In this document: piece after piece, positions 15,944-53,385 of the stretch
Layout: the number at the start of each line of letters is the position of its first letter
Numbering within the stretch: the stretch's first letter is position 1
From: a virus
Virus record (IMG/VR): IMGVR_UViG_3300013131_000002
Span: 14,252 to 78,251 of that record
Reading direction: 5' to 3' (one strand)
Length of the DNA stretch: 64,000 bases
Translations under genes and position numbers: made by a program
The notes under the pieces: model-generated
What the model was told of the DNA's origin: nothing
Seen by the model: only the letters and a program-made list of their open reading frames with translations
The model's database searches: none

Positions 15944-18900
15944 TTATTTGTTATAAAATTCTGAAGCTTCTTTTGGATTGAAAGTTTTGTCTACTCCAAC
16001 ATAGAATGGTATATTATCGTAGGCTTGTTTTTTAATCTTTCTATCTCCTTTTTTCATTCCTGATTCTGCTCTTTGGTAGAATATCTTTTTCTTGTCTACT
16101 TCAAATCCTAAAGTATATGGAAGATCATAGAACAAAGCTTGCTCTGCTAATCCAAACATTGACTCAACCATATTTACAGTGGCTGTAGGAGATTGGATGA
16201 TTCTCAAAAAGTCTTTGTAGTTATAGAATTGTTGAAGCTCAGCATTCATACGAATAGCTTGGTATCCAAAGAATTGTGATACTTTATCGTCTTTATCATC
16301 ATCTCCCATTAACATTCCTGCTGCAACACTAGTAGTAATTACCCAAGCTGCTTGAGACAATGTACGTTTAATATCTGCTTGTTCCCATTCTGTATGCTTA
16401 CCATATACTCCACGATACTTAAGTCCTGCTTTTGTTGCTTGAACCATATAATTCATGAAGACTTTGTACATACCATTAGCAAGTACCCCAGATTCGGTAT
16501 CAACATGAACTCCACGATTAGATCCATATCCCCAATGTTTACGTAAACCTGGAGAAAAGAATCGACGGAACAAGTTTAAAAGTTTACCCCACCATCTTCT
16601 TTCAGCTAATGCTCTATCTACATCTCCTTTAACTTGGTTTGTTTTTTTCATCAAACCACTAAGCTTATTAACAAAATCCATCTGAGTTAAGTTAGCTACT
16701 CTTGGATCTAATTCTAAATTACCATTTGCTTTTTCTATCAATAGGTCATAGAGATTTGCATCTGTACCATCTGCATTTTTAATTACATCTCCATTTTTAT
16801 CTTTAAGCTTTCCCTTATAACTATCCATCAATGCAAGCATACGAACTATTACAGCTTCGTGCTCTGCCATAGTTTGTAAAATACTCCCAACTCCTCCAAC
16901 TAGAGATTTTCTTAATCTGCTACCTGTGATATTAGATACTTGATCCATGCCTAGCTGATCTGTATAAGCATCTGACCAGAGAGCAGATTTAATAAGTTTT
17001 GATTTTGGGGCAAATGCTCCCCAATCAGATATACCTGCGGCTCCAGTTATAAACTTTGCTAATGCCCATGCATGGTTTGTCTTATTAAAGTACTGACCTA
17101 CAATTCCTTCTTCAATTAATTTCTGGTTATCTAAGAACAATTGATTAGTAGCTTGAAGACCATTAAATGATAGAGCTTTTAGTGCTGTGAATCTTGTAAC
17201 TGCAGAAGTAATTTTACTTGCACTTATTGACTTTCCTGCTATACCTACAGTATTTAATATATCTTTTCTTCCAAAGAATACTGATTCAATAAACTCCTCT
17301 ACCATTTGGGATGTGTTACTTGTAATCCCTTCTCTTGTTTCATATTCTATATACCCATTTCTTCTAGCATATTGATTTACAAGTGGAACATAAGCTAAAG
17401 CTCCTTCTACCAAAACTTTTCTATTTCTTATCAAATCTCTCATCAATATAACTGATGATTGAATTTTACTTTTAGATTCAAAATCATTAGCCATTTTAAC
17501 AAAGTGCATTATGGCCCCAGTTAAATCTCTTGTAACTAATGCTTCTGACATAACAGAAGTAAAGAATATTGGAACGATTTGCTGTCTAGCTTGAGCAGCA
17601 GTTAACTCTCCATATTCTGTATCTCCTTCAGTAATCATGAATCCTTCTCTTAGCATCTCTCTACTAGTAGCTAAGAATCCATTATTCTGCATTTGTCCTA
17701 GAGTATCAGCTTTAACTGTTGGAACCATATATGTATATGTATCCCAAGTATTTTTAACTTGTTTAGTCTCTCCGATTTTGTCTGAGTGTTTATTATAAAT
17801 ATCTAGTAGTTTGTACATATATTTATAATCTTCAGTCTGTGTATTCTTAAGAGCTGTATATTTTGGATTTAAGTATGAATCATTAGGCATAACAGCATCT
17901 CCACGGAAACTATTTGAATAACTGTTGTAGATATAATTAATATCTGATTCAATCTGTTCCATCTCTACTAAAGCTAAAGCTGCTCTATCTACATCTATAT
18001 CTCTATATTTATAGTATTCTTTCTCTACAGCTCTATATTCTTTTTCAAGATCTAACTTTCTTTGCATGGCATTTGGAGAAGTCTTACTATTCTTAGCATG
18101 CCAGTCATCTATCATTCTGTAGTATCCCTTACGAAGTTCTACAAACTTTGGTTCTTTTGATTTTTTCCATTCATCATAGGCATCTCTATCCCCAATGTTC
18201 GGCTTTTTGAATTTCTTCTCAGCTTCATCGAGCATGTTATAAAAAGTTTTCCAATATCTTGTAACATCATAAGGTTGAACAAATCCTAAAACTTTAATTT
18301 CCTTTCTAATGTTATTACCTTTATTGTCTTGTTCTACAACAAAATGGCTAATAACCTCATACATATTAGCATAAGCTTGTGTAGGATTAAAGCCACTTTT
18401 ACGAGCCATGAAGTTTTCATAATCTTTTGATAGACTATATTGAACATCTCTAGTTTTTTCTGCTGCTTCTAATAATGAAGCTTTTACTTCTGTTACGAAT
18501 AATTGTATAGCTGTTTGAGAAGAATTGATTACTGGATCCATAAGTACACTGTACTTAGTCTTATCCATCTGAGCATTTACAAGTTCATCAATAAGAGATT
18601 GAAGTCCTATCTTTTTTCCACGAATCTGCTTTACAAGTTCTTCAATTAATAATTTATCTCTAGTAGGTTTATCTATAAGATCTTTCTTATAATCATCTCT
18701 AATTTTTAAAGTTGCTTCTGTTTCAATAAGCAAATTCTTTCTCATCACCCCATCCTTCTCTATACTTTGAGCTAAAGCTTCTAGCTCATCATTTAATCCT
18801 GTATTTTTATGATAGCCAAGGATTAGAGAAGCATGTAAAGGGGCACCTAATTTTAAGTACTTTGTATAGGTCTCATCCATTTTATTGTTTAGAGCTATTA

Positions 18901-20602
18901 CTTTATCTCTTAACACTTGGATGTTATCTAACTCTTGTTGAGTAACTGTTTTCTTTTTCTGAAGCTCATCTAACTTTTCTTTTACAGCATCAGATATATC
19001 TTTCATTACACCTCTAGTATTATTGCTATCATAATAAGTTCTCATGTAGTTAGCAATATTCCCAAGAATGTTAATTAGTTTGAGTCGTTCTTCTTCATCA
19101 ATATTTTCTAAATCTACAGACATCTTTTCAACCATTGCAAAGTCACTTTGAGCTTTATTAAATAGTTGATTAACATAGTCTACTAGTCCTACAAAATCTT
19201 CTGCCTCTTCTACTAACTTGAGTTTTGCCTTATGAGATTTTAATAAACGTGCAGCAGATTTAGATTCCGGGGTAGTGCTTCTAGAGGCCATGTCCAAACT
19301 TTCTTGAACAGCTTTTACAGCATTTACTTTTGCAGTTTGTACTGACTTCTGTAAAGATGATAATCCCTTACTTTGCTGTTCGTATAGGCTGATAGCTCCT
19401 CCAAATTCTCCTGGATTTATGTCCCCGGCAAATAAGTCTTGAGCTAACTGAGCAGCCATATCAGTTTTAATTCCAAACTTTTTAGCAATTGCTCTAAATA
19501 TTCTATTAAAGAACTGTTGAAATTTGCTTGGATTTTTATATTCTAATTTAGCTCCTTCTAACCCAATAGCAGTAGCTAATACCTCTTTATCTAGTTTCTC
19601 TTGATCCTCTGCTAACTCTGGATATTCTTCTAGTACTTTATTGTACAGGTTTGTATTTCTAAGTTCTTTTACTGCAGCTTGTACAGCAGGGTGATTATAC
19701 CCTAACAAATCTACATATAAGTGACCATACTCGTGGTAGGCTGTATCTTCAGCAATCCTATCTGGATTAAGTGTAATGACTACCCCTCCATTTTTTCCAG
19801 GGCTTATTTTACCTATACTTGGAAGTTTAGGGTCATAAACTACATCTACTTTTACTCCAACCTTTTGGAATACCTCTTGTAATCTTTTGGCCTGTATTTT
19901 TACTTTCCCTAATTGAGCTTCTCCAGTGTTAGAGAATCTTTGCTCACTTGAGTTTTCTAATCTAGCAGTTTCTGATATAACTGTTTCTGATAATTGTTGT
20001 CCTTGTGGACGACCGATCATATCTAGATAACCTTGTAAACCTTCTACGTATCTTCTGCCTACAACACTTTGTGCTAACTCTTGCACTTCTTCCCCATAAG
20101 TTTTGAACATGTCCATTTGTTCATAAGCTTTGACTAGCTCCTCTTGGCTGTTAGTAGGGGAATTATATAATCCTAGTGGCTCTCTACGTAATTCACTTAA
20201 TGCTACAGGATCTATTTTTACACTATGAGTGTCTTGACTTTTCCATTGCATCTGTCCATTAGCATCTGCTATGCTGTATCCAGAGTTGGTAGGGCTGCTT
20301 TTTATTTTATCTGTTACAACTAAATCTCTAGTAGCTCCAAATGCAGAACGAGCATAACTATTTATCTGTGCAATTCCATTAAGTTGGTCAGATAGAGTAG
20401 AGTTAGTAGACCCTTTATTTACATAATAATTTCCTTTGAACTTGTTGACTAACCTTACTTTAGTCAATATATCCATTATATCTGCAGTCTTTCTAGATTT
20501 CTCTAAAGTGTTTACAAGATAGTTTGCAAGTTCAGTACTAGCTGCTGATACTCTTAGACCAGTGCTAGCCGTAGTAAATACATTACATTTTCTATTTGCC
20601 AT
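15944..20602 (-). CDS. large virion ejection/cargo protein with a zincin (HExxH) domain
   Basis: 1552 aa; AYHEYGH...KEVLA; follows the vRNAP as in crAss-like phages. Confidence 0.8.
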   Translation of the reverse strand: MANRKCNVFTTASTGLRVSAASTELANYLVNTLEKSRKTADIMDILTKVRLVNKFKGNYYVNKGSTNSTLSDQLNGIAQINSYARSAFGATRDLVVTDKIKSSPTNSGYSIADANGQMQWKSQDTHSVKIDPVALSELRREPLGLYNSPTNSQEELVKAYEQMDMFKTYGEEVQELAQSVVGRRYVEGLQGYLDMIGRPQGQQLSETVISETARLENSSEQRFSNTGEAQLGKVKIQAKRLQEVFQKVGVKVDVVYDPKLPSIGKISPGKNGGVVITLNPDRIAEDTAYHEYGHLYVDLLGYNHPAVQAAVKELRNTNLYNKVLEEYPELAEDQEKLDKEVLATAIGLEGAKLEYKNPSKFQQFFNRIFRAIAKKFGIKTDMAAQLAQDLFAGDINPGEFGGAISLYEQQSKGLSSLQKSVQTAKVNAVKAVQESLDMASRSTTPESKSAARLLKSHKAKLKLVEEAEDFVGLVDYVNQLFNKAQSDFAMVEKMSVDLENIDEEERLKLINILGNIANYMRTYYDSNNTRGVMKDISDAVKEKLDELQKKKTVTQQELDNIQVLRDKVIALNNKMDETYTKYLKLGAPLHASLILGYHKNTGLNDELEALAQSIEKDGVMRKNLLIETEATLKIRDDYKKDLIDKPTRDKLLIEELVKQIRGKKIGLQSLIDELVNAQMDKTKYSVLMDPVINSSQTAIQLFVTEVKASLLEAAEKTRDVQYSLSKDYENFMARKSGFNPTQAYANMYEVISHFVVEQDNKGNNIRKEIKVLGFVQPYDVTRYWKTFYNMLDEAEKKFKKPNIGDRDAYDEWKKSKEPKFVELRKGYYRMIDDWHAKNSKTSPNAMQRKLDLEKEYRAVEKEYYKYRDIDVDRAALALVEMEQIESDINYIYNSYSNSFRGDAVMPNDSYLNPKYTALKNTQTEDYKYMYKLLDIYNKHSDKIGETKQVKNTWDTYTYMVPTVKADTLGQMQNNGFLATSREMLREGFMITEGDTEYGELTAAQARQQIVPIFFTSVMSEALVTRDLTGAIMHFVKMANDFESKSKIQSSVILMRDLIRNRKVLVEGALAYVPLVNQYARRNGYIEYETREGITSNTSQMVEEFIESVFFGRKDILNTVGIAGKSISASKITSAVTRFTALKALSFNGLQATNQLFLDNQKLIEEGIVGQYFNKTNHAWALAKFITGAAGISDWGAFAPKSKLIKSALWSDAYTDQLGMDQVSNITGSRLRKSLVGGVGSILQTMAEHEAVIVRMLALMDSYKGKLKDKNGDVIKNADGTDANLYDLLIEKANGNLELDPRVANLTQMDFVNKLSGLMKKTNQVKGDVDRALAERRWWGKLLNLFRRFFSPGLRKHWGYGSNRGVHVDTESGVLANGMYKVFMNYMVQATKAGLKYRGVYGKHTEWEQADIKRTLSQAAWVITTSVAAGMLMGDDDKDDKVSQFFGYQAIRMNAELQQFYNYKDFLRIIQSPTATVNMVESMFGLAEQALFYDLPYTLGFEVDKKKIFYQRAESGMKKGDRKIKKQAYDNIPFYVGVDKTFNPKEASEFYNK

Positions 20603-20608
20603 TTCTTA

Positions 20609-23600
20609 TTAAATTGAACAGAATGTTAACGACTCATTGTCATCACCCTCCTCTCTATTATCTTTTAACAGTACCATTGCTCCACCTTCTACTGATGTTG
20701 TAACTCCTACTTCAGGATTTATATTAGATACTCCTGACAACTCTACTAGTCTTTTTGAAATTCCAAGAGGTTGAACTCTTGTGTATACCCCACCTGTTTC
20801 TGTAGTAGAAGATTTTACAAATAATCCAACATCTTTATTTTTCTTATCTACCAAAAGTACGAAATTATTACTTATTCCACTCACTGCAAGTTGGTCTGCT
20901 AGCTTAGAAATATTCTTTTTTCTTAACAAAGTTTTCTTTCCATGTCTCATGAATGCATTAGCTCTAATAAAATTAAAGAGTTCATCATTCAAGTAGTCGT
21001 TGCTTTGAACATCTTTTACTTTAGTCATGAAGAATTCTACTGGAGATTTTGCAGTTACCTTTCCGGCATCTTTTCCATATCTATTTATTCTTGGGCTAGT
21101 CCAGAATTCTACTGGTATGATATCTGTAAAGGAATTAGCTCCAATGTCGAACCCACGACTAACAATTGAATGAGCTGCTAGGTCTTCTGCAAGTTCCTTG
21201 ATCTCTTTTATTTGCTCAGTATTTCCTGGGTCGGTAACATATTTTTCTGGAGAGTAAAGAAGTTTTCTTAGCTCTGCAGTAAACATGTCCTTCTCAGTTC
21301 TAGAGAATCCGTATGAGTTATCAAACTTAACTGTGAAAAATTTAGCCTCCATTGAGTCATTCTTCTCATCTCTTGCAAAGTTGCTTACGAACTTATTGCC
21401 TGTTAAAGATGGGTACTTAGCTTTCATCTCATCTAATTTCTTATCGATATTAGTATCTTTTGAAAGGTAGGTTTTTGAAAGATGCTCTTGTGTAAAGAAG
21501 TCTGCAAGTGGAGATTCTTCAACAACATCTATTTCCCCCATATCATTTCTAAGTAAAACTCTTGGAGTTAAAAGCATTCTTAAATTTAAGTTCCTAGAGA
21601 TATCTCTATGTTGCTCTGGAGTAAACTGTATCTCTCCTACATTTAATTTAAGATTGTCTTTGAATGTTTTAAATGCTGGAGATGTATTAGCCGGGAAGAG
21701 GATAGATGCCATCTGCATAGCAGAGTCAGACATTCTATCATAAGCTTTCTGTGTTCCATAAATAGAATCATCTCCTAAGAATTGATCAACAGGATTGCTC
21801 ATTCCATCAGGTCCTCTAAATGCTTGTGCTCCAGACTTATCGTCAAAAGCTAATCTCTTGTCTTTATATGCTTCGATACGATCTATAGAATTCATACCGT
21901 CAGCAGTATCCGGGGTAATAGTTTGGTAGAACTCCATTAGTTGAGATCCTGCTTTAGAAAACTTCATGAAATTATTCATGAATATACCTTGGGTAATATT
22001 CTTCTTATCATTTCTTTTAAGTTCAGCAAGATCTTTTCTATTCATATTAATAGTCTCATATCTATTGATGTCATTGAGAGGAGTTAGTTTAAACTCTTTC
22101 ATTGCATCTACATATGCACTATTCATCTCTGTTAGTTCTCCACCATACTTATTATAAAAAACATCTGTGAAATATCGTATAATAGGTTGGTTCAAGAAAT
22201 CGTGCAGAGCTACTGTATCCCCATTGAATGTTATCCAGAATGCTTCTACAGGTAAGGTAATAGTTCTATCATTAAGTTCGTACTGCTTAGGATTGTTAGC
22301 AGCATCCACAGCAGCAGATACATATCTACCAATTAATGTACTTGTAGGAATAGTGGCATCTATTTTAGTAGCCTCAGTTCCTACTTTTTCCAAATGCTTT
22401 TTATAAACTTTATTGTCAAGTTTAATAGCATACTCAGGAGTTGTAACTACTGTTCCAGCAGCTGCTACGTTTCTACCTGATAGCACATTATTCCACAATC
22501 CTTTCAACGTGTTACCGATAATTGCTCTTTCAGCAATTTCAGTTTCTTTCATTGGACTAGCAAACTCAGTATTGTTAACCAAAGAAGGATTTCTTTCTAG
22601 AATACTAGCCATGATGCTTGTCAAGCTTTCTTCATCCAAAGGTCTAACAGTTTCTGTTAAGTGCATAGGACTAGACATTACTGCTTCAATAGTATCTAAG
22701 ATTACATTTGTATAAACCTCTAATGCTTTAGACCCTTCAGGTACTGCATTTTTGATTGTGTTATCTTTGATAGCTTTATTATAGTCTAGACTTACTTTTG
22801 TTACCTCTCCTTTTTCATTCTTACTTAAGTATGGAGCTAGTATGAAAAGTTTATCTACGTCAAAGTCAGATCCCATCAACTTGGTAATATGTGGTGGAAC
22901 TTGTACTGCTTTTGTATAATTATCTGGGAGGAATCCCTTAATCTTTATTAAGATTGTAGAAGATTTATCTTGGTTAGGGATACGGTATCCAATCATACGT
23001 AGAAGTTCCTCTGGAATGTTGTCTAAAGATTGCCCTGGCTCTACCCCAAACTTACGAGCAATGTCAGGACGTATCATAACTTCCATGTGTCCTAATCTAG
23101 GTTTGCCTTCATTATCAGTTTTGATTGCATAGAAGTTTAAGTTAGAGTTTTCTTCACTACCTCCAAACTGTGCAAACTGAACTGCCTCTATACCAAGAGC
23201 TTTCTGCTTGAATACTTGGTTGTTAAACATACCAAATAAAATTTGTTGGAACTTAGTCTGGTATACAGGGAAGTCTAATGGAATAGCAAACCTTGGCATT
23301 CCACTTTCTTTATCTATTACAATGTTTAAAGCATCATCATAGTTTGATGGTAGCTTTCTTTCTAAATTTTCTTTTTCAAGAATGCCACGTATAATTTTTA
23401 AGGCTTTTAATCTAGCTTCATACTCTTCTTTGAATCGTTCACCAGATAAACTCTTCTGAGCTTTTAGAATGCCATCAATACCTAACTCTTTGAATAAACT
23501 TCTTGTAGCTATTTCAGCCATGTTCTCAGTAGCTTCGTGGAAAAATTTAAGAAGTTGGTCTCCTTTGATTGCTACTTCTTTGCCTTTAATCCCTGCATTG

Positions 23601-26600
23601 TATTTGTAAACTCCTGCTTTATTTACATTAGCAATAGCATTCTTTTTCAACTGTCTATTGATAATAGCTTTTTGTTTACCGGTATCTGATATTTTTTGTG
23701 GGAATCCTAATCCTCTAGAATTCAACTCTTCTACATATAAGTTTGTAAATTCCCCAGCTTCACCTGTTACTTGATATACAGATGACTTATGGAATTTTCT
23801 AACAGACTCCACATTCACTACATCAATTTTTGAGATGTTAGGATTGTTTGCATACTGCCCTGTCTTCTCCATACGTTGACGTAAGTCATTCATTGTGGAG
23901 TTATCTTTAGTAGCTTCTTCTAATAATACTCTCCAAGAATTCTTTTCATTAATTGGAGTAACATTATTATTAATATTTTGAAGAGACTCAAAGTATGGTT
24001 TAAAAGGCTCTATTATTATTCTCTGCCCAGCTTTTGCATTTCTTGGAAGAACCGATGTAGCTTGGTAAGCAAATATTGCAGGCCTTCCTTCAGCCTGTGC
24101 ATTTTTGTATTCGTTAAAAGCATCTTCGTGGTATGCAAACCACTTACCATCTCCTTGCATTGACTTACGATACATGTCAATTGATGCAAATCCTTGACCA
24201 TCTGTACCCTCAATTTTTGTAATTGTAGGATCAAATGATTGAGCAATACTCTTAGCTATTGCAGGATCTACTCCAGCATTTACCATTCCAGCTTCTAGAT
24301 CTTTAGCTATCTTAACATTTCTATTTTCATCTGCTATAGTCATTCTTAGATTATCATCTCTAAGAATTGCTGATGTATATGTAGGAGACATACCATATTG
24401 TCCAGCTACTCCAGGTTCTTCTACAGCTAGTTCACCAGCTATTGTCATTCTAGAAACAGGAGTTGTCAATGGAGCCATACGTTTGTAGAAGTTATCTAAG
24501 CTTTTAGTATGAGCTCTTGATCCACGGAATATTCTATTGAATTCATTACGTGCTACAAAATCATCAAATACAAAGTCTCTTAGAACTAATTCTAATCCTC
24601 CAAGTTCTTCTACTTGCTTCATTCCTAATCTATCAGCAGCATCATATTCTATTAGCTTGCCTTTTACTTCAGCAGCTTTCTCAGTAAAATATAACATGCT
24701 TTTAGCAACCATGTCTTTTACAGACCCCTCAAACTTTGCATATCCTTCTGGATCTTCTTGCTTTAATTTTCCATTTAAAAAATCAACTACCATGTCACTC
24801 ATATGACGAGTTCCATTAATATACATTTTGTCTTCTGTAGAGTTTTTTGCTGGGATAATTAAGTCAGTTACAATCTGTATTCCATTAAGCTTTCCATCAA
24901 ATTGCATGAATTTAGAATCAAAAGCTCTTCCTACTAGTTTACCATTCTCATCTCTCATTACAATTGAGAACTTACCATCTTTACCTTGTTTAGATGTGTA
25001 GTGGTAACCTTCACTCAGTAATGCTAGTGGTGCATTCTGTAAATCATTTTTTGCTTTAGCTATTCTAGCTAAGTCTTGAATAATGTAACTAGCTATAATG
25101 TCTTCTTGAGACATCTGTATTCCAAATGTAGAAGTCAGCTTTCTAGATCGTGCAAATGGAACAACATCTGCACGAGAACGGTCTCCTTGTGTAGGTATTT
25201 GATTTAGCCCTAAGTTTTTATTTGCATTATTTAGATATCCATTTAACCTTGTGATTAAACTATCTGCATTGTTGAAACTTGCATAGTCTGTAAATGCAAT
25301 AAAGTCTTTCTCTCCTTTAGTAGAATCGTATACAAAGTTTTTGAATTCAGTTCTATATAAAGGGTTCTTTAAAAGCTGGAGTATTAGTCCAGTGAACTTG
25401 TTGTTAGTTAGAGGATTAGGATTGTTAAAAGGATCTGCCATATACATATCCCACATCTTAGCAGCTTCTGGTGTTTCAGAAGTAAGAGTAGAGATAATTG
25501 TATCTAGAGATGTAGGCAAGTTCATATCATAAACTGCCGAGTTCATACCATTAACAAAGCTTGTTCCCTTATTAGATTTAAATAATGGAACTATCGATGC
25601 AAGATGACGAATTGTTCTCTGCTCACCACCTGCTCCAAATATATTAATTGGGTTTTCTTGCGGTCCCTTATAAGCTTTAATTGTTTGTCCTTCAAATTCT
25701 AACTTAACAATTTTAGTTACAAGTTTAGATAGTTCATGATTAGGACGGTTTACGTAGTATGCATAAAGTTGTTTACCTTTTAAGAATACTAATCGATTGT
25801 TTTGGCTTACAGTTACTCCAGTGTTGAAATATTTCTGTAAGTTGTGAGCAGTCTGCATAAAGATTGTTGAGTCTCCAATGTTCATACTCATATCCCAAAG
25901 AACTCTGGCTAATGCCATTACAGGTTTAGAGATACCTGTTTGTGATTCTACTTCTTCTGCAGAACGTAATGATTGCTGAACTACCATATAGTTCGTAGCA
26001 ATGGTCTTAGCTTTTTCTTTTTTAACAGTTAAAGCTAAGTTTCCTTCTTCATCTACTGTATATTTATAGACAGCTCTAGGTTTTTCTGTTTGAACTTCTA
26101 CTGAATTATTTTTCCAGTTAGTAACTTCAGCTCTCTCTACAGATTTTTCATTAGAGTTTATTATTTTAGAAGATGTTCCAGTTTCTGTTTTATCCTCTAC
26201 AAATAATAAGAATTGATTTTGATGTAAACTAAATGCAGCTCTTATTGCTGACTGATCTGCGGCTGTCAATCCTTTTAGTAAAGGCAGTACGTTTGCATAC
26301 TTAGGCTTAAACTTTATTAAGTTTTCAGCTCTAGCAAGCATAGTTTGAAAGTTAGGGGACCCAGAAAATACGTTTAGTAATTCAATGTACACCTCATCTT
26401 TTGGAAGGTAAGTATTATATCCTAAGAAGTTTGCCTCTGTACTTTCTACACGAGATAGGATTTCTTTTACTCTACCAGTCATACCATCTGCAGGATCACT
26501 CTCAAAACTGGACTTACCATAAATCTTTTCTACGACACCGTTGTCATCTTCAAAGTCAATAGTTTCCTCATTAGAGTATTTGATTATAGTACCAAAGTCT

Positions 26601-27757
26601 CTCATATCTTCGGCTACTAATTCTCTCCATCCTATGGTTTGTATATTACCAAACTCAGGTTCAACAGTAGTATTCCAATTGTTATAGATATCAAAGAAGA
26701 TATTTCGTAACAATGGATTTCTATCTTCAAAAGCTACCGGTCTTTCAAACTTAATTCCGTTGAGAGATGCAACAGTATCTATATAGTTTTTAGTAGCTTC
26801 TGCAAGTCTCTCTGGGTTATTAGATTTAACAGCTCTATAGTAAGCAGACTCTACTTCAAATGCTTTTTTAGCATCTTCTAATGATACAGCATTTCCTTCT
26901 GGTGTGCTGTAGGCATTCATCAAAAAGTAATTTGCAATATCTCCTTTATTGGTTCCTACACCAAGAGCAGTCTCTGCATTAAATCCTGGGATATCTTTTC
27001 TATCGATTAAGAATTTACTAAGAGTAGATGTAATTTCTCTAGTAGCTTCCTCTCCATACTCTTGACGATATCTGTAAGCTTTTGTTTCAGGCTTAAATGT
27101 TTCTGTGTTACGGAAAAACTTAGCAGGAATTTTATTTGACTCTACTAAACGATATAAATCTTTTATTGCAATTTGATTTGTAGTAGCTAGTTTAATATAG
27201 CTCCATAGGTTCTTGAACCATTTAGCAATACGTTCTGGGAGAGTTCTCTCCATTGTACCTTCAGAAAGTACATACTCTCTAAAGTCTTCTGCAAGTTTTT
27301 CCTCGTAGTGAAGGTCTTCAAGCTCTTGTTGAGGAATATTTGGGTACTGTTCTCTTAAAGAATCTAATTGTTCTTTGGTAACAGGGCCATATTTTTTTCT
27401 AGCTTCGTCTATTACAAGAGTACGTTGAGCATCATTTAGCATTGAACGGTGTACAATGTGATAAGCTTCGTGATACTCTGTACCAATTTCTGCACCTCTA
27501 GATAAAAATATTGCAGAGTTTTGTACATACCCATGTACAATTCCATTACCTATGTTTCCTAATGAATCAACAATCGTAACATCTATGTCTGGAAATCTTT
27601 CTTTTAACCATGCTGTAGCCTTATCCTCCTGTATAGGTTTGAAAAATCTTTCAGGCACATTCCCTTCATACTTATCCCATATGGATAATGCTAGTTCAGG
27701 ATTTGCTTTTTCTAGAGCTTTCCACTCTGGTAGATTTTTATTAGGACAAGTTGCCAT
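20609..27757 (-). CDS. virion-packaged RNA polymerase (two-barrel, crAss type) with an N-terminal zincin-like domain
   Basis: GYRIPNQ...GSDFDVDKLF catalytic DxDxD motif (22853-22867), TDGQG; N-terminal YHEAYH...EEKLAE. Confidence 0.93.
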   Translation of the reverse strand: MATCPNKNLPEWKALEKANPELALSIWDKYEGNVPERFFKPIQEDKATAWLKERFPDIDVTIVDSLGNIGNGIVHGYVQNSAIFLSRGAEIGTEYHEAYHIVHRSMLNDAQRTLVIDEARKKYGPVTKEQLDSLREQYPNIPQQELEDLHYEEKLAEDFREYVLSEGTMERTLPERIAKWFKNLWSYIKLATTNQIAIKDLYRLVESNKIPAKFFRNTETFKPETKAYRYRQEYGEEATREITSTLSKFLIDRKDIPGFNAETALGVGTNKGDIANYFLMNAYSTPEGNAVSLEDAKKAFEVESAYYRAVKSNNPERLAEATKNYIDTVASLNGIKFERPVAFEDRNPLLRNIFFDIYNNWNTTVEPEFGNIQTIGWRELVAEDMRDFGTIIKYSNEETIDFEDDNGVVEKIYGKSSFESDPADGMTGRVKEILSRVESTEANFLGYNTYLPKDEVYIELLNVFSGSPNFQTMLARAENLIKFKPKYANVLPLLKGLTAADQSAIRAAFSLHQNQFLLFVEDKTETGTSSKIINSNEKSVERAEVTNWKNNSVEVQTEKPRAVYKYTVDEEGNLALTVKKEKAKTIATNYMVVQQSLRSAEEVESQTGISKPVMALARVLWDMSMNIGDSTIFMQTAHNLQKYFNTGVTVSQNNRLVFLKGKQLYAYYVNRPNHELSKLVTKIVKLEFEGQTIKAYKGPQENPINIFGAGGEQRTIRHLASIVPLFKSNKGTSFVNGMNSAVYDMNLPTSLDTIISTLTSETPEAAKMWDMYMADPFNNPNPLTNNKFTGLILQLLKNPLYRTEFKNFVYDSTKGEKDFIAFTDYASFNNADSLITRLNGYLNNANKNLGLNQIPTQGDRSRADVVPFARSRKLTSTFGIQMSQEDIIASYIIQDLARIAKAKNDLQNAPLALLSEGYHYTSKQGKDGKFSIVMRDENGKLVGRAFDSKFMQFDGKLNGIQIVTDLIIPAKNSTEDKMYINGTRHMSDMVVDFLNGKLKQEDPEGYAKFEGSVKDMVAKSMLYFTEKAAEVKGKLIEYDAADRLGMKQVEELGGLELVLRDFVFDDFVARNEFNRIFRGSRAHTKSLDNFYKRMAPLTTPVSRMTIAGELAVEEPGVAGQYGMSPTYTSAILRDDNLRMTIADENRNVKIAKDLEAGMVNAGVDPAIAKSIAQSFDPTITKIEGTDGQGFASIDMYRKSMQGDGKWFAYHEDAFNEYKNAQAEGRPAIFAYQATSVLPRNAKAGQRIIIEPFKPYFESLQNINNNVTPINEKNSWRVLLEEATKDNSTMNDLRQRMEKTGQYANNPNISKIDVVNVESVRKFHKSSVYQVTGEAGEFTNLYVEELNSRGLGFPQKISDTGKQKAIINRQLKKNAIANVNKAGVYKYNAGIKGKEVAIKGDQLLKFFHEATENMAEIATRSLFKELGIDGILKAQKSLSGERFKEEYEARLKALKIIRGILEKENLERKLPSNYDDALNIVIDKESGMPRFAIPLDFPVYQTKFQQILFGMFNNQVFKQKALGIEAVQFAQFGGSEENSNLNFYAIKTDNEGKPRLGHMEVMIRPDIARKFGVEPGQSLDNIPEELLRMIGYRIPNQDKSSTILIKIKGFLPDNYTKAVQVPPHITKLMGSDFDVDKLFILAPYLSKNEKGEVTKVSLDYNKAIKDNTIKNAVPEGSKALEVYTNVILDTIEAVMSSPMHLTETVRPLDEESLTSIMASILERNPSLVNNTEFASPMKETEIAERAIIGNTLKGLWNNVLSGRNVAAAGTVVTTPEYAIKLDNKVYKKHLEKVGTEATKIDATIPTSTLIGRYVSAAVDAANNPKQYELNDRTITLPVEAFWITFNGDTVALHDFLNQPIIRYFTDVFYNKYGGELTEMNSAYVDAMKEFKLTPLNDINRYETINMNRKDLAELKRNDKKNITQGIFMNNFMKFSKAGSQLMEFYQTITPDTADGMNSIDRIEAYKDKRLAFDDKSGAQAFRGPDGMSNPVDQFLGDDSIYGTQKAYDRMSDSAMQMASILFPANTSPAFKTFKDNLKLNVGEIQFTPEQHRDISRNLNLRMLLTPRVLLRNDMGEIDVVEESPLADFFTQEHLSKTYLSKDTNIDKKLDEMKAKYPSLTGNKFVSNFARDEKNDSMEAKFFTVKFDNSYGFSRTEKDMFTAELRKLLYSPEKYVTDPGNTEQIKEIKELAEDLAAHSIVSRGFDIGANSFTDIIPVEFWTSPRINRYGKDAGKVTAKSPVEFFMTKVKDVQSNDYLNDELFNFIRANAFMRHGKKTLLRKKNISKLADQLAVSGISNNFVLLVDKKNKDVGLFVKSSTTETGGVYTRVQPLGISKRLVELSGVSNINPEVGVTTSVEGGAMVLLKDNREEGDDNESLTFCSI

Positions 27758-27758
27758 A

Positions 27759-30700
27759 TTAACAGATTTCTTTTAGTATTTCGTTTGCTTCTTGTGGAGT
27801 TTTACCTAACTCTATTAAGAAGGAGTAAGTTACTTCCGATTTTTCATATTCAATACCATCTACACTTACAGTTTGTAAAGATACAATATCTTCGTTTAAT
27901 AGATCAGGATTTGATCCTTCTGTTGCTGCTACTAATGCTTGAAGGTCTTCCATAGACATAGGAGCCCCAGTAGATTGTGCAGGTGCTGGAGTAGTTGGTG
28001 TTGGAGCAGTTTCTTTTGTAACTTCCTTCTTAACCTTTATTTTTAGTTTAAGAGCCATACCTGGTCTTAAGAAATTAGATTTTAGGTTGTTAGCTTTCTT
28101 AATAGCATCTACAGTTGTTCCATATTTAGCTGCAAGAGATTTTAAAGTCTCACCTTTTTTAACAATGTGCTTTTTCCAAACCTCTTGTTCTACAGTTTCT
28201 TTACTAGCAGCTTTCTCTGCAGCAGCTTTTTTCTCAGCTTGTTGTGCAGCTATAGCAGCAGCAATAGCATCTGGTACAGCTGGGGTAGTAACAGGTACAC
28301 CTGGCATTCCTGGAAGAGTTGGTAATCCCAAGTTGATATCTGCAGTGATAGTATTTGCAGCAGGAGCAGGTTGATTTGTAGGCTGATCGAATACCTTAGC
28401 TTTCATCTCCTCCTTAACTTCTATAGCTACTCCATTAGATTCAATAGTTCCAAACTCTAATCCGATGTCAAAGAAGACTGATCCATACCCATTATTGGCT
28501 ACGTCAGATGCTAAGATAGCTTTACTTCCAATTCCTTCTTTACGATCTTCCGTTGCTTCTTTCTCAGAGAATAAATAATCTGTGTAAGAAGGGTAAGTTC
28601 TTTCAGAGTTTATAGGGCTTACATATGGAGCATTGGTTTCAAGAAGGGCTTTAGAAACTTGGAAACGTTTCTGAGCAAGCTGATCTAAAAACTCTTTAAC
28701 CATTACTGGCTTCAATTTTTCAAACTCTGCTTTATCTCTTGCTGCAGATTTGAAATCTTTACCACCTTCTTCTGTTTGCTCCACTACAGTAAAAGAGAAT
28801 GGGAGATCAGCATTACCTGTTCTCTTGTATTCTTCTATTGCAGGAATAAGTTTATCATATTGTACAGACACTAAGCTGTTAGCAGCAGGAGACCAGAATG
28901 TTACACGGATACCGTTCTTTCCTTCTGTAGCTCCCCAGTTTTTACTAACTTCTTCCACATACATATAACCAGGAGCAGATACTTTAATCTTGTTAGTACC
29001 AACTATTTGGTTAAAGGTATTTACATCTCTATTTTTCAAAGATGCTATAGCAGCATCTTGTGCTTCTTGAGTTAAGAATCTTGTACTACCTTGTACTACA
29101 CGGTAGTTTCCATTAGGGTCTTGTACTAAGAATGCTACAACCCCTGCATCTGTTAAGTTATCATAGTTAAGGATTGCTTGCTCTAATGCATATGAAATTT
29201 TAGATAACTCTTCAGGCATTAAACCTTCTGTATTTCCTAATTCCCATCTACGAGTTATAGAGCTAGTATTTCCTTCTGCATCTTTAGTTTCTACCCCGGT
29301 AGCTATAGCTACTATAGGAGTGGTGCTAGTAGGAACTCCATTAACAAATCTTGTCCCTAATCCATTTTCAGAAGCAGGATTTACAAAGATTACATTCCCA
29401 AGTATATCACGAAGGTTGATAATATTACCTTTACTTCCAGTAGTAAACTTCTTAGATTTTATTGTAGATGTAGCTTTTCCACCATTTTTAATAGTGTCGT
29501 AAATTATTTGACGAGTATGTCCTTTGTATCCATCAGTAGAATCAGGTCTAAATCCTGTAAGCATTCCTACGTAAGTTTCTACTTGTATAGTTTTCCCAAC
29601 AGAGTCTACTTTATCTTCTACTATTTTAACAAAGATTGGAACTTCCTCCCAATGTCTATCTTCTGGAAGAGAGTCCTTACCCTCAGTCTGCCACCACTTA
29701 GTATCTTCTCTTACTTCAAATACTACAGTTGTACCAGGTTTAGCTGTATTAGGATTTCCTAAAGCTTTCTTGTCCAATGTGATAATGCCGATCTCATCTC
29801 CTTTCTCATTTACCACAATACGACTTTTTCTACGAGTGTCATTAGGAATGCCTACAGATACTTCTGTGCTACTAGCAGTTCCTAATACTTTATAGTTATC
29901 ATCTAAATCATATTCACCTTTTGTAAGTTGAATATCTAATTGCACAGACACTGTGTTTCCAGTAGGAACTTCCTCATCAGTTTCGAATTCGATAGGATTA
30001 ACTAGTCCAACAGTAGTAACTTGTCCACCAGCTTGATCTGTATGAGTGTTACTAGACATGTCATTAGTAGCTTTTTGCTCGTCTGCTAATCTTGCTTCGA
30101 TTTCACCAGGCTCTGTTCCTACTTCATCCAGCCCCGTGTCTTCAGATGTTTCTCCAGTTCGCTGACTCTGTTCTTCAGCGATTTGCCTTGCAGCAGTTTC
30201 TTCAGTTCCTTCGGCAGATACTGTTCTACGACCCAACTTGATGTCAATTTCATCGGTATAATCATTTATTTGTTCAATTTTTCTAGCAGCTTTCTTTTCA
30301 TTGAAAGCTATAACTTGTCTTGCTTGAGTAATTTCGTTTTGTATTTCAGCAAGTTTTTTAGCACCCTCTACTGTGTTAGGGTCTATACTTCCAGAGTTTA
30401 GAGTATTTTGATGCTCATCAATCAATGCTTGAAGTTTATCAATCTCCTCATCTAGTATAGCTACTTCTACTTCAAGCTCTTCAATTTTTTGACCCAAGGC
30501 CCCAACTTCTATTTGTATTCTTTCACCTCTGTCTACAAGAGTAGTACGTCTAACATTATGCATTTTTTGCATACTAGCAATAAGACCTCTTAATTTCTTA
30601 ACAGTTTCATCTTTATTAGCATCTTGCAAAGTATAACCTAAAGCAGCATAATCTGCATAAACACTATCTAATACTTTATTTAAAGTTCTGATATTAGATG

Positions 30701-33700
30701 AGAGTTGAAGCATCTGCATTTTAATAACTTCATTAGTTATTGCATCTACAGGTAGAGTATACTCTTGGCTTATTACAGAGTCTACAATTTCTTGTATAAT
30801 CTCTTGTCTGTCTTGTTCTACTTCTTGAGTCTCTTCTTCAGTCATAGTAGCAACTTGACTAGTATAGTTTCTAAATGCCATAGCTAATAATAGCTTTTCA
30901 TATACAGCATCTATAACCTCTACTTCATCTTGCCCTCTACGTTTTCTGAATGTGTAGTATTCTTGTTTATCTACATCAAATAAAGTAATGCTGCTAACTT
31001 CTCCATCGGGACTGAGGTTAACTGCATCCATAATTGTAACACCCGTGTTTTCATAACGTCTTCCTCCTATTAAGAACCCACGACCTGTGGGTGCATGTGT
31101 ACGAACTCCGTCAACTTCCACTACTTCAGTATCAGCATTTGTTACAAGCTTATTTGCTTCAGTAACAGTTGGATCAGCTGCTCTTCTTTCTTCTTCTAGC
31201 ATTCTTTGCCCAAGATCATCTACTTCATCTTCTGGGGTATTTACTTCAGAAGTTTTTCTAGCAGATGCATCATTAGCTATTACCTCTTTAAATTTATTTG
31301 TAAACTGCTCTAATCCTGCTAAATTTTCTATAGCATCTGCCCAGATAAAAGTTTCAGAAGGATTTGATTGCATTTGGTATTGAGCAACTACTATTAATTT
31401 TTTAGCAGCTTTATCATAGTAAACACTTAATCCAGTTACTACTACAGGTTCTTGAAACTGTGCTGCAAGTTTAATTTGAATTTGCTCTGTAACAGCTGCA
31501 AGTATTTTATCACCTTGCTTTTCTCTATTTATAAATTTAAATAAAGCAGCAAGATCATATGGCATACTGTCTACCTCATCCAATATAGAATTAACTTTAT
31601 TAGTTATTCCAGCTCTTAGTTCTGAATTCTTTTTATATTTCAAGGATTCGTTATAAGCAGCTTTCATCATTGGAGACATAGAGTCATAATCTAACTTTCT
31701 CATCTCCTCAACAGATAGAGTAGAAAATTTATCTTTTCTAATTTCTGCCTGACGTTTCTTAAGTTCTTTGATAGTCTTTAAAGCTTCAGCTTTTAGAGTA
31801 TCATCAGTGATATTAGGAAGTGCATTGATTAATTGTTCAGCTGTTTGAGCATGAAGTATTAAATCTTTTGCTACTTGATTTCTTCTCTCTTCTAAATTCT
31901 TACTTTGATCAGCTTGAAGTGCTTCGTAATATAAAGTACGTTTGTCTGGATTTTTACGTAACTCTTCATATGCAGATACAGCTTGCTCTCTTGCAGCAGC
32001 TGTTGCAAACATATCTGAAAAAGCATTGTTAATTTCTTCTCTGTCTTGTGGATCTAAAGCTCGTAGAACCAGGTTCAAATGGTCTACAGTATTTTTACCC
32101 ATAGAGTATTGCAACAGTTCTTCTACAGATTTAGAATCTACTTTTCCATCAGCTCCTGGGGTAACTTTTCCAGACTTGATAGAGAACTTTAATATATTAG
32201 GATCTAATGCTGGTAATCCTTGAGCTTTTAATTTATCATTTACTTTATCTACAAGTTGATCAATTTTTGCTTCGTGATTATCCATTTCAACAGCAGCAGA
32301 GTAAAGCATATTACGATATGCTTCTGTTACTCTGATTTGAAGATCCTCTTGGTTACGTTGCTCTGCAGACATAGTCAATCTTTCCAAAGGAGTGGACCTC
32401 TCTTGGATAGGAATCATTTCTTTAATATTCTTAGCAACTTGTGTATTTCTTCTTAAAGCATCTTTAACATCTCTTACAGTAGACTGAATATCTTTTTCTG
32501 TAAAAGCTTTAGCTTGGCTTTCATTTAAATGTGGAAGAGCAAATTTTACAAATTCTTCTGGAGTCAGTTTCTCTAGATCGTCCAACATTTCTTCATACAT
32601 ATCTGTAGCCCCAAACTGCTCAGCAATCATTGCTTCATTTGCTAGAGCTTTTGATAAAATATTAGCAGCAGTTTTATGATCTCCTTTCTTAGTGGCTTTA
32701 TGGTAATCCTCCATCATAGCTTGAGTCTCAGAAGACATCTCTGCACGTTGTGTAATCTTAGATAGGATACCTGAGTTTCTGATTGCTAATATTTTTTCTG
32801 TAGCTTGCTTTTGTTGTTTAGATTGTCCTCTAGAAGAGAATGCAGTCATACCTCCACCTATCATTGCCCCTATCAAACCTTGCTCTAAACTCTCTTCTTC
32901 TGTAAAAGTCTTTTTAAATGCTTCAGCAAAATGTTCAGCTACACTAGCAGTACCGTCTGTTTGTCTTTTACTCCAATACCCTAAGTTAAATTGTTGGGCA
33001 CCATACTGTGCAAGTTCTTGTCCTCCCTCGAATATTGCTCCCTTACCTAGTGTGGCACCTTTTTTTACAACTTTTTCAGCTAACTTTCCAGCTTTACTTG
33101 TAAACCAAGTAGCCTCTGTAGCAGATCCTGCAGCTCCAGTAAGTCTTGATGCTGTTACAACTTCTTCTCCAATACCTGCAACAGGGACATTAAATCTTCC
33201 AAGCAACTTGCTTCCCATTAAAGCTGAGATCATAAACATGTTTGATCCTAAAAGGATAGGCATGTTAATAGCAAAGTTTGTATTACCAGCTGCATTTGCA
33301 TATCTTTCAATCTCAGCCATCTCATCTGGTGGAATCAAGTTTCTTGATTTACCAGGATTAGCAGCTTCCCATTCTTGAAATTTAGTTTCTATATATTGTC
33401 TTTTAACATCACGAGATTCTACGGCAGCTTCTGCATACGATGCTGAGTAAGATGCTGCTAGCATTTTTCCAGCCTTCATCATTCTACCTTTGAATGGGCT
33501 GATTTGACCTGCAGCTAAATTTTCTACAGCTCGTACAGAGTTAGCACTTGCTGCCCCACCACCTCCAATTGTTCTAGTAGCTGCTGCAGCTTCTGCTCCT
33601 AATGCTTCAGATATTACACCAGCTTTTGGTCCTTTTCCTACAGCTCTTTGGATTAAGTTTTTAGCTCCACGATATGCACTTCCTGATATAGACTTTCCTT

Positions 33701-35054
33701 TTGTTAAATATAAAGGAGCCATAGCACCAGCAGCAAATCCTATCCCATTCATTACTTTGTCAAAGTAGAAGTTAGCAGAACCTTCTTCAAATGGAATCCA
33801 ATTAATTTCATTACTATCTAACTCTTTTCTAGTATAGTAAAATGGCATAGCATTGCTAGCACTTTCTCTAAGTTCATCTAAATAATTTCCTAAGTCTGTA
33901 TCCCAATAAGCAGCTGCTATATCTTGCCAAGCTTCTGGCCCACTTTTGTCTTGAATGGTTTTTGAAACAGCTTCTTTATATCGAGCTAGAACTTGTTTAG
34001 ATCCTATTCCACCAGGTGCATTATATCCAACTGTTCCCCCAAACATAGATTTAATAGCTAATCCTGCTTGGTAAGATCCAGATCTTTGAGCTTTCTCTTC
34101 TTTAATAGCCATAACAGCGTCATCCACTGTTAGGTTTTTTTCACGAAGAGCTCTCATTAAAGCTGCATCTGTTTCTATAGTCGATCTTAAATTTCTTTCT
34201 AAAGTAGCTTCGTCAGATGTTTTTTCTATTATAGCTTTTCTAGTAGGTCCTCCTGCAAACTGATCCTCAGCCATTACAGACTCGTCTAGATAATATTCTC
34301 TTCCGTCAGATCCTTTTACAGTTTCATGTGGGGACATCAATCCAAATGATTCTAAAAAGTCTACAGCAGAGAATAACAATCCTGGAGTAGATTCTTCTGC
34401 CTCCAACATTGTGTGAGTTTTATTTTTTCCAGCTATATAACTTTCAGTAGCTCTTTTAGTCTCAGCATTTAATCCTGCAATCCCTAAACTTGCTAATCCT
34501 GTTGGAGCTCCAAGTAATGATTCGGTACCTGTAGTTAATGCTGTTACAAGCAAGTTACCTGCACCATATCCAAACTTTGTCCAAGATCCTTGCTTTTGAG
34601 CCCTCATGTCTTCCCAGTCATTCTCCGTAGTAGGAGTAAAACCGTTTGCCATCATCTTCCTAGCACTAGGATCTTTTGGGCCCTTACCATGTAGGAATTC
34701 TATTTCTTTGGTACCTGTCAAGAATCCACGGTTAACACCGTCATACATCTTGTAGGAATCTGTATTATTAAATGGTTTTCCAGTAAAGGGATCTAATTGA
34801 CTGGCAGACTGCAGTTCATATAGATTAAATTTATTGCTATTAATATTTTTGTTAATAGCTGATACTGTATCTTTAGACACGGGATTTCCACCCATATCTA
34901 GTACAGGTCCTTTTGGTTTATTCTTTAATCCAGGTCCAGATACACTTTCTAAATTTAAAACTGCTCCTCCTGTACTTGAAGATTGGTAAGGCACTCCAGT
35001 AAGGGGATCTACCCCAGGTGATGGGGTAAAAGGGTCTTTGTTAAATTCTGCCAT
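27759..35054 (-). CDS. giant virion ejection protein with a C-terminal LysM domain
   Basis: 2431 aa; Gly/Ala-rich hydrophobic N-terminal segments, coiled coils, LysM HIVKKGETLKSLAAKYGTTVDAIKKANNL. Confidence 0.8.
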   Translation of the reverse strand: MAEFNKDPFTPSPGVDPLTGVPYQSSSTGGAVLNLESVSGPGLKNKPKGPVLDMGGNPVSKDTVSAINKNINSNKFNLYELQSASQLDPFTGKPFNNTDSYKMYDGVNRGFLTGTKEIEFLHGKGPKDPSARKMMANGFTPTTENDWEDMRAQKQGSWTKFGYGAGNLLVTALTTGTESLLGAPTGLASLGIAGLNAETKRATESYIAGKNKTHTMLEAEESTPGLLFSAVDFLESFGLMSPHETVKGSDGREYYLDESVMAEDQFAGGPTRKAIIEKTSDEATLERNLRSTIETDAALMRALREKNLTVDDAVMAIKEEKAQRSGSYQAGLAIKSMFGGTVGYNAPGGIGSKQVLARYKEAVSKTIQDKSGPEAWQDIAAAYWDTDLGNYLDELRESASNAMPFYYTRKELDSNEINWIPFEEGSANFYFDKVMNGIGFAAGAMAPLYLTKGKSISGSAYRGAKNLIQRAVGKGPKAGVISEALGAEAAAATRTIGGGGAASANSVRAVENLAAGQISPFKGRMMKAGKMLAASYSASYAEAAVESRDVKRQYIETKFQEWEAANPGKSRNLIPPDEMAEIERYANAAGNTNFAINMPILLGSNMFMISALMGSKLLGRFNVPVAGIGEEVVTASRLTGAAGSATEATWFTSKAGKLAEKVVKKGATLGKGAIFEGGQELAQYGAQQFNLGYWSKRQTDGTASVAEHFAEAFKKTFTEEESLEQGLIGAMIGGGMTAFSSRGQSKQQKQATEKILAIRNSGILSKITQRAEMSSETQAMMEDYHKATKKGDHKTAANILSKALANEAMIAEQFGATDMYEEMLDDLEKLTPEEFVKFALPHLNESQAKAFTEKDIQSTVRDVKDALRRNTQVAKNIKEMIPIQERSTPLERLTMSAEQRNQEDLQIRVTEAYRNMLYSAAVEMDNHEAKIDQLVDKVNDKLKAQGLPALDPNILKFSIKSGKVTPGADGKVDSKSVEELLQYSMGKNTVDHLNLVLRALDPQDREEINNAFSDMFATAAAREQAVSAYEELRKNPDKRTLYYEALQADQSKNLEERRNQVAKDLILHAQTAEQLINALPNITDDTLKAEALKTIKELKKRQAEIRKDKFSTLSVEEMRKLDYDSMSPMMKAAYNESLKYKKNSELRAGITNKVNSILDEVDSMPYDLAALFKFINREKQGDKILAAVTEQIQIKLAAQFQEPVVVTGLSVYYDKAAKKLIVVAQYQMQSNPSETFIWADAIENLAGLEQFTNKFKEVIANDASARKTSEVNTPEDEVDDLGQRMLEEERRAADPTVTEANKLVTNADTEVVEVDGVRTHAPTGRGFLIGGRRYENTGVTIMDAVNLSPDGEVSSITLFDVDKQEYYTFRKRRGQDEVEVIDAVYEKLLLAMAFRNYTSQVATMTEEETQEVEQDRQEIIQEIVDSVISQEYTLPVDAITNEVIKMQMLQLSSNIRTLNKVLDSVYADYAALGYTLQDANKDETVKKLRGLIASMQKMHNVRRTTLVDRGERIQIEVGALGQKIEELEVEVAILDEEIDKLQALIDEHQNTLNSGSIDPNTVEGAKKLAEIQNEITQARQVIAFNEKKAARKIEQINDYTDEIDIKLGRRTVSAEGTEETAARQIAEEQSQRTGETSEDTGLDEVGTEPGEIEARLADEQKATNDMSSNTHTDQAGGQVTTVGLVNPIEFETDEEVPTGNTVSVQLDIQLTKGEYDLDDNYKVLGTASSTEVSVGIPNDTRRKSRIVVNEKGDEIGIITLDKKALGNPNTAKPGTTVVFEVREDTKWWQTEGKDSLPEDRHWEEVPIFVKIVEDKVDSVGKTIQVETYVGMLTGFRPDSTDGYKGHTRQIIYDTIKNGGKATSTIKSKKFTTGSKGNIINLRDILGNVIFVNPASENGLGTRFVNGVPTSTTPIVAIATGVETKDAEGNTSSITRRWELGNTEGLMPEELSKISYALEQAILNYDNLTDAGVVAFLVQDPNGNYRVVQGSTRFLTQEAQDAAIASLKNRDVNTFNQIVGTNKIKVSAPGYMYVEEVSKNWGATEGKNGIRVTFWSPAANSLVSVQYDKLIPAIEEYKRTGNADLPFSFTVVEQTEEGGKDFKSAARDKAEFEKLKPVMVKEFLDQLAQKRFQVSKALLETNAPYVSPINSERTYPSYTDYLFSEKEATEDRKEGIGSKAILASDVANNGYGSVFFDIGLEFGTIESNGVAIEVKEEMKAKVFDQPTNQPAPAANTITADINLGLPTLPGMPGVPVTTPAVPDAIAAAIAAQQAEKKAAAEKAASKETVEQEVWKKHIVKKGETLKSLAAKYGTTVDAIKKANNLKSNFLRPGMALKLKIKVKKEVTKETAPTPTTPAPAQSTGAPMSMEDLQALVAATEGSNPDLLNEDIVSLQTVSVDGIEYEKSEVTYSFLIELGKTPQEANEILKEIC

Positions 35055-35059
35055 TTGAA

Positions 35060-35069
35060 TACAAATTTA
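35060..35069 (-). promoter_or_regulatory. Bacteroidota -7 promoter element TAAATTTGTA
   Basis: TAnnTTTG ends 7 nt before the ATG at 35054. Confidence 0.55.
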
Positions 35070-53380: not shown

Positions 53381-53385
53381 TTTTT

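Follow-up and report, generated by a model that had tools for sequence, protein, structure and literature searches.

A probable disulfide-linked chain of three virion cargo proteins in crAss-like phages, indicated by cysteines at their facing ends

The means by which crassviruses load their virions with about 0.7 MDa of protein cargo, an RNA polymerase included, and deliver it into the host are not understood, and a 64,000-nucleotide stretch of the virus record IMGVR_UViG_3300013131_000002 (positions 14,252 to 78,251, the whole of which is called the window here) raises the question of whether the pieces of this cargo are joined end to end. Five large open reading frames (ORFs) lie in series on its minus strand, encoding proteins of 1237 amino acids (aa), 857 aa, 2431 aa (protein A), 2382 aa (protein B) and 1552 aa (protein C), with one base between the stop of A and the start of B and six bases between B and C. 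Translation confirmed the ORFs and every Cys codon listed in an initial annotation of the window: protein A has one Cys (C2431, the final residue), protein B has two (C4 and C2380) and protein C has one (C6), none is internal, and the adjacent 857-aa protein has no Cys, as that annotation also stated. These four Cys in 6365 aa compare with about 58 expected from the other ORFs of the window (0.915% Cys, 129/14091 residues; Poisson P about 3e-20), and four Cys would land one each in the 6-residue zones of the four facing ends with a probability of about 2e-11. The explanation favored here, at a probability of roughly 0.7, is a disulfide-linked A-B-C chain of cargo proteins.

Protein B is evidently a crAss-type virion RNA polymerase: it has a profile match to phi14:2 gp66 (PDB 6VR4, expectation value (E) 2e-36) and tblastn matches to phi14:2 g066 and to putative RNA polymerases of many crAss-like phages, and D1631, D1633 and D1635 of its DFDVD motif are invariant in aligned homologues. 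Protein A matches crAss001 gp47 (BLASTP E 2e-14), and protein C matches crAss001 gp49 (E 9e-29) and phi14:2 g065 (E 1e-27). From these orthologies and the portal and major head protein genes found upstream of the block on the same strand, the window is identified as the structural half of a divergent crAss-like phage, and A, B and C as orthologues of the polymerase-associated virion cargo trio. Pfam and PHROGs gave no match for A, B or C except the LysM domain of A. The orthologous proteins were detected in virions by mass spectrometry in crAss001 (gp47, gp50 and gp49; PMC10172136) and, according to its record, in phi14:2 (gp67, gp66 and gp65), and by orthology A, B and C of the window are probably packed in the virion and ejected as well.

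The arrangement of Cys is conserved among homologues. In a set of 36 homologues of B (identity down to about 30%), almost every protein has one Cys at position 3-5 and one within 0-4 residues of the C-end, and few if any besides; C2380 is invariant in the 26 that were aligned, and C4 is absent only in two with a long N-terminal fusion (P0027 and P0028). Homologues of A end in Cys in 14 of 15 cases, and those of C have a Cys at position 3-6 in 45 of 47 cases, a C-terminal Cys in none, and just 14 internal Cys among 71,124 residues. Four apparent exceptions without an N-terminal Cys (P0011, P0021, P0056 and P0081) look like truncated or mis-started gene calls, and a fifth (P0042) is A-like but short and ends differently. 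Two cultured phages with orthologues of the trio obey the same rule of Cys at facing ends: phi14:2 has C1797 (the final residue) as the sole Cys of gp67, C3 and C2179 (of 2180) in gp66, and C3 as the sole Cys of gp65, and crAss001 has C2339 (of 2341) as the sole Cys of gp47, C5, C1334 and C2404 (of 2412) in gp50, and C5 as the sole Cys of gp49. Unlike the window, crAss001 has another A-B split site and a gp47 gene on the other strand. The pairing that had been proposed from the window, of the C-end of A with the N-end of B and the C-end of B with the N-end of C, is therefore one in which orthologues keep their terminal Cys at matched ends.

Comparative genomics indicates that the Cys pairs follow the gene boundaries. 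An alignment-based scan of IMG/VR supplied a first set of 80 loci with 10-kb flanks, in which the large ORFs were listed, and a scan seeded from a different clade supplied 80 further loci, for a total of 160; an IMG/VR scan seeded with protein B alone found no loci. Three architectures occur in the first set: three genes, with the Cys pattern of the window; an A-B fusion (3500-4700 aa) that lacks Cys at its N-end and at the old junction and has one at its C-end, matched by an N-end Cys of the next protein; and all three fused (5005-5639 aa), the complete proteins of this type having zero Cys. One all-fused protein of the second set (L099, 5677 aa) has one Cys, which is non-terminal. BLASTP places A, B and C regions in that order within the giants. 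Both Cys are present in the first set at 41/41 A-B splits with both sides visible and at 62/62 B-C splits (16/16 and 34/34, respectively, after dereplication at 80% core identity), and the pair is missing without exception at fused junctions (22 A-B and 10 B-C). The loss of the pair upon gene fusion, which the initial annotation had named as a point to check, is thus seen exactly at the fused junctions, and the outer ends, Cys-free in the window, are also Cys-free in relatives (0/31 N-ends and 0/70 C-ends in the first set). Across the 160 loci, phi14:2 and crAss001, each true split junction has a Cys no more than nine residues from both facing ends; there are more than 130 split junctions overall, and Cys are present as a facing pair in every case, never singly. 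Present at splits and absent at fusions, the facing Cys appear to stand in for chain continuity, as a pair that substitutes for the missing peptide link.

All further true split junctions of the second set have both Cys, including those of 15 loci that are readable only with TAG taken as Gln, which removes 16-72 in-frame stops per protein. Many second-set loci are gut loci with 16-72 in-frame TAG codons per protein, consistent with stop-codon recoding, and the polymerase block is open only with TAG as an amino acid in L101, L105, L107, L124, L126, L127, L131, L136, L146, L154 and others. Three candidate exceptions to the rule were rejected. L038 seemed to have no downstream Cys, the ORF start having been taken too far upstream of the real one (MAKKC); L102 seemed to be fused, a TAG stop having been read through, and in its twin L100 there is a split with both Cys present; and L109 seemed to have a Cys-free break (3265 + 1187 aa) in a 4483-aa protein that is intact in the near-identical L107, so that a frameshift error is probable. 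A practical rule follows for giant ORFs of this kind: true gene boundaries are recognizable by a terminal Cys pair, and breaks that lack it, such as the one in L109, point to an error of sequencing.

In a tree built from the polymerase core, split and fused loci are intermixed, which requires no fewer than four changes at A-B and three at B-C; both fusion and fission arose several times. In L046, L061 and crAss001, the A-like protein carries what is the first domain of B in the window (residues 36-184), and the Cys pair is found at the new ends; B residues 36-177 match residues 2090-2218 of crAss001 gp47 (E 6e-9), where the domain lies at the end of the protein. The Cys pair evidently moves with the break when the split site shifts. 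The A-like gene of crAss001 and of about 35 gut loci lies convergently on the opposite strand, yet its product likewise has just one Cys, at the C-end. The junction Cys are encoded by TGT in some cases and by TGC in others, and they lie at position 3-7 of the downstream protein and 0-9 residues from the C-end of the upstream one. Because of the A genes on the opposite strand, the varied codons and positions, the moving split site and the covariation with fusion, the constraint is considered to be one at the protein level that concerns both facing ends jointly.

A bond of the kind proposed has been resolved in another phage. In the pre-ejectosome of cyanopodophage A4 (Anabaena phage A-4L), studied by cryo-electron microscopy, the C-terminal helix of gp27 is inserted in gp26 and fixed by a Cys1715-Cys5 disulfide (PNAS 2025, PMC12002296). 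The A-4L genome encodes gp27 (1717 aa) and gp26 (1114 aa) in adjacent genes, and C1715 and C5 (positions -2 and +5) are their only Cys. The likeness to the window consists of adjacent genes for capsid-internal ejection proteins with sole or near-sole Cys close to the facing C-end and N-end, and the solved structure shows how a C-terminal helix can dock into its partner and be locked there by a disulfide. Unlike the window, A4 has one bond between two proteins of a T7-like core stack with no RNA polymerase, and neither fused relatives nor covariation have been reported for it. Comparison of A4 gp25-gp29 with A, B, C and their neighbors gave no BLASTP match below E 0.1, and PDB sequence searches with the window proteins gave no match to any A4 chain. 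The terminal-Cys signature that is known from sequence in crAss-like phages is, by analogy, that of a proven disulfide in an unrelated phage. Disulfides of crAss001 virions have been described in the portal-vertex protein gp57 (a dimer), the tail hubs and the ring proteins, in a paper that is silent on the ends of gp47, gp49 and gp50 (PMC10172136); they demonstrate disulfide formation among the virion proteins of a gut crassvirus, but they are braces between folded shell or tail subunits and not end-to-end joints of cargo. By analogy with A4 and with these other crAss001 bonds, a disulfide is plausibly the likeliest chemistry of the facing pair. The phi14:2 preprint reports that a few residues at both ends of gp66 are invisible in the crystal, and does not mention cysteines; neither this preprint nor the crAss001 paper speaks of a link between the cargo proteins. 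The initial annotation held that such a chain was undescribed, which agrees with the searchable literature on Crassvirales, where no description was found, but not with the wider literature, a head-to-tail disulfide between ejection proteins having been published for A4 in 2025.

The mechanism proposed for A, B and C, which belong to the crAss RNA-polymerase block as its three cargo proteins packed in the virion and are one polypeptide of 5000-5700 residues in some relatives, would begin with docking in the reducing cytoplasm, by means of a helix-turn-helix tail ending in Cys and a head of about 40 residues beginning with Cys; once the particle is oxidised, inter-protein disulfides would form and lock the joints, giving A-S-S-B-S-S-C, a near-linear thread of 6365 residues. 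With the Cys placed at the very ends, only stubs of a few residues at most would project past each bond, so that the joined chain could still pass a narrow channel, as would be needed in a tail like that of crAss001, the channel of which is narrower than 50 Å (PMC10172136). The link would hold the trio together and in order through packing and ejection; the crAss001 structure paper considered that ejection order probably depends on interactions among these cargo proteins (PMC10172136), and a covalent chain, if true, would give that order a simple physical basis. Ordered ejection may be followed by reductive release, in which the host cytoplasm may free A, B and C. In AB-type toxins, a single interchain disulfide joins two chains while they cross a narrow pore, and the cytoplasm of the target then reduces it; these toxins have no homology to the crAss proteins, their chains arise by precursor cleavage, and reduction is known to be required for them, whereas for the crAss chain it is only inferred. 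If true, the chain would be a second and much larger case beside A4, and the ejection proteins of podophages may generally make use of end-to-end disulfides. A 345-aa protein encoded downstream of the polymerase protein in L027 (L027:8283-9320) has Cys at position 3 and at the last residue, so that in some phages the chain may be longer than three links.

The giant polyproteins, with the same three regions in the same order in one peptide-linked and essentially Cys-free chain, are what a disulfide chain would imitate. Such a chain, if true, would account both for the near-absence of Cys and for the easy interchange of split and fused gene forms. Cys make up 0.039% of the 330,483 internal residues of the block proteins versus 0.69% of other ORFs of the same loci. 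It had been proposed that Cys elsewhere were selected against to avoid wrong cross-links; as a protection of the terminal pairs only, this does not hold, because the depletion persists in fused forms without terminal Cys and is therefore a general trait of this cargo, but the absence of other Cys fits a densely packed cargo that must avoid stray cross-links. Two polymerase proteins are not Cys-poor (L049:4682-13180, 23 Cys; L077:3455-10897, 13 Cys), yet they keep the terminal Cys, and the next protein in each locus keeps the facing Cys as well. The authors of the phi14:2 preprint suggest that fused polyproteins are cleaved by a protease, and state that gp65 orthologues have a zincin-like domain. 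The HEAYH motif of B and the HEYGH motif of C lie in the first folded domain past each junction, and in fused relatives such domains could cut the polyprotein at equivalent sites; the HEAYH domain is missing from several B homologues (P0005-P0009).

The ends that carry the Cys are cassettes of recognizable types. Head type 1 (M-x-x-C-P-N..W..L..LW..G.VP, about 40 residues, with C4, P5, L15, A23, W27, G32 and P35 invariant) is found on B in the window and also on C-like proteins of L021, L028, L071 and L080, the bodies of which are unrelated to B. The tails that face it have the form ..ELG....EANEILKEIC, shared by A and its close homologues (G2417 and C2431 invariant), or ..GW[ST].E.[FW]...S.EER...[AL]..C in gut phages. 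Head type 2 (M-[AS]-C-K-Y-Y..G..S.LY..L) is found on most C-like proteins, in a weaker form on C of the window, and faces low-complexity tails. Head and tail types thus go together across junctions. In P0027 and P0028, where B is fused at its N-terminus, a Pro/Thr/Asp-rich linker directly precedes the B body, and the remaining fused proteins that were compared resemble B in BLAST only from residue 40-47 onward, with no head cassette detected; the end cassettes are apparently specific to split forms. AlphaFold2 models of the cassettes, built on shallow alignments, predict coil for residues 1-9 of the B head followed by helices at 10-18 and 23-30 (predicted local distance difference test (pLDDT) about 67-76 there), and, for the last 150 residues of A, helices at 129-134 and 139-149, so that the last 22 residues form two helices up to the final Cys. 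A co-fold of A residues 2345-2431 with B residues 1-75 had an interaction prediction score from aligned errors (ipSAE) of 0.01 and was not used as evidence either way. A more far-reaching proposal is made only tentatively and is somewhat doubtful: portable "dock-and-lock" cassettes, consisting of a Cys-first head of about 40 residues and a matching Cys-last tail, would rebuild a polyprotein of 5-6 thousand residues after translation, so that fission at many sites is tolerated and the thread, RNA polymerase included, is packed and injected as one molecule that parts only in the reducing host cytoplasm.

Several points weigh against a disulfide-linked A-B-C chain. The support for a bond in crAss-like phages is wholly comparative or by analogy, and in the three-gene form the sequence is compatible with other pairings, such as B C4-B C2380 plus A-C. 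Conditions are reducing in the host cytoplasm and anoxic in the gut, and the place and time of oxidation are not fixed; nor are equal copy numbers of A, B and C per virion established. Most tails opposite the strand-turn-helix heads are of low complexity, with no evident docking motif, and the cassette models are of low confidence (mean pLDDT 55 for the B head and 60 for the A tail). The existence of all-fused relatives without Cys implies that release by reduction is not essential, and rules it out as the general requirement that had initially been envisaged.

The same ends might also be joined by something other than a disulfide, either a metal ion (Zn, Fe or Cu) bound by both thiols, to which a second copy of the junction might contribute its own thiols, or a thiol chemistry of the thioester or thioether type. 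The covariation with fusion indicates pairing and not chemistry, and a metal bridge could exist in the reducing cytoplasm, where a disulfide could not form; but each end offers one conserved ligand residue, with no conserved His, Cys or Asp neighbor, the only solved case with this signature (A4) is a disulfide, and there are several disulfides in crAss001 virions, all of which makes a metal site or other thiol linkage unlikely. Bonds to other partners, in the form of A-A or C-C homodimers, closure of B upon itself (C4-C2380), or anchoring of the cargo to portal, capsid or tail, would take advantage of a partner that is not fixed by the sequence; in the crystal of phi14:2 gp66 both ends are disordered and so free to reach elsewhere, and crAss001 gp57 provides an example of homodimer disulfides. 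Such arrangements are quite unlikely given that Cys are gained or lost as facing pairs and never singly in more than 130 split junctions, that A-B fused forms keep one C-end Cys and one at the head of C with no mate for closure of B, that all-fused forms do without any anchor Cys, and that head and tail types match across junctions.

Very little credence can be given to explanations without any link, in which the terminal Cys would serve each protein alone (as a packaging or processing signal, or as protection of the end), reflect DNA signals at the junctions, or be there by chance. Nothing specific favors them, although the tight junctions of one and six bases had suggested translational coupling. 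Coupling and other DNA-level signals were rejected because an A-like gene that lies on the opposite strand, a long way from the start of B, still encodes the C-terminal Cys, and because both Cys codons are used at variable positions. Signals of a single protein would not vanish from both sides together upon fusion, and a chance origin is ruled out by the estimate of 2e-11 for the window alone. An intein or a lipobox was also rejected, the ends being far too short and lacking a signal peptide. The disulfide-linked chain remains the preferred reading of the features listed in Table 1.

Table 1. Positions in the window of the three cargo genes, the neighboring gene and the motifs and Cys codons discussed in the text.
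Feature	Positions	Strand	Remarks
Protein A	27759-35054	-	2431 aa; first link of the proposed chain; orthologue of crAss001 gp47 and phi14:2 gp67 (ORF list, BLASTP)
LysM domain of A, residues 2296-2337	28044-28169	-	Peptidoglycan-binding type; Pfam PF01476, E 1.8e-13
C-terminal tail of A, last 27 residues	27762-27842	-	Predicted helix-turn-helix ending in C2431
Codon of A C2431	27762-27764	-	Sole Cys of A, final residue
Protein B	20609-27757	-	2382 aa; virion RNA polymerase; middle link of the proposed chain, Cys at both ends
N-terminal head cassette of B, residues 1-40	27638-27757	-	Carries C4; motif M-x-x-C-P-N..W..L..LW..G.VP
Codon of B C4	27746-27748	-	
HEAYH of B, residues 96-100	27458-27472	-	Zincin-like motif in the first domain of B, directly past the A-B junction
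DFDVD of B, residues 1631-1635	22853-22867	-	Catalytic motif of RNA polymerase
Codon of B C2380	20618-20620	-	..TFCSI, third residue from the C-end
Protein C	15944-20602	-	1552 aa; last link of the proposed chain; orthologue of crAss001 gp49 and phi14:2 gp65
Codon of C C6	20585-20587	-	N-terminal head MANRKC.., of the strand-turn-helix type common to most C-like proteins
HEYGH of C, residues 290-294	19721-19735	-	Zincin-like metallopeptidase motif
857-aa neighbor	35067-37640	-	Probable cargo protein; Cys-free; outside the proposed chain

The 857-aa neighbor has a weak match to phi14:2 gp68, and its homologues in related loci are Cys-free too. The LysM region of A has a profile match to the LysM region of LytE and is modelled at pLDDT about 80-86. 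Extra enzyme domains are present in three homologues of B (P0004, P0009 and P0010), being either AAA/zeta-toxin-type kinase (PF13671, PF06414) or ParB-like (PF02195), and in P0004 the insert directly follows the head cassette. On the opposite strand, adjoining the block, is a gene for a 940-aa protein with RIIA-like matches (9183-12005, plus strand; PHROG 612, E 7e-21).

Other proteins of the window also have Cys at or near their ends. A 323-aa protein of the tail-gene region (47950-48921, minus strand) has its sole Cys as the final residue (..GGKKC), and this Cys may form another disulfide joint, comparable to the ring and hub bonds of crAss001; the two ORFs downstream of it have internal Cys only. 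A 187-aa ORF (53956-54519, minus strand) has 14 Cys, including a CxCxC-like C-terminal run, and a 467-aa tail-fibre-like protein (52103-53506, minus strand) has C10, C12 and C14. These two structural proteins thus have Cys-rich ends, in contrast to the Cys-free cargo.

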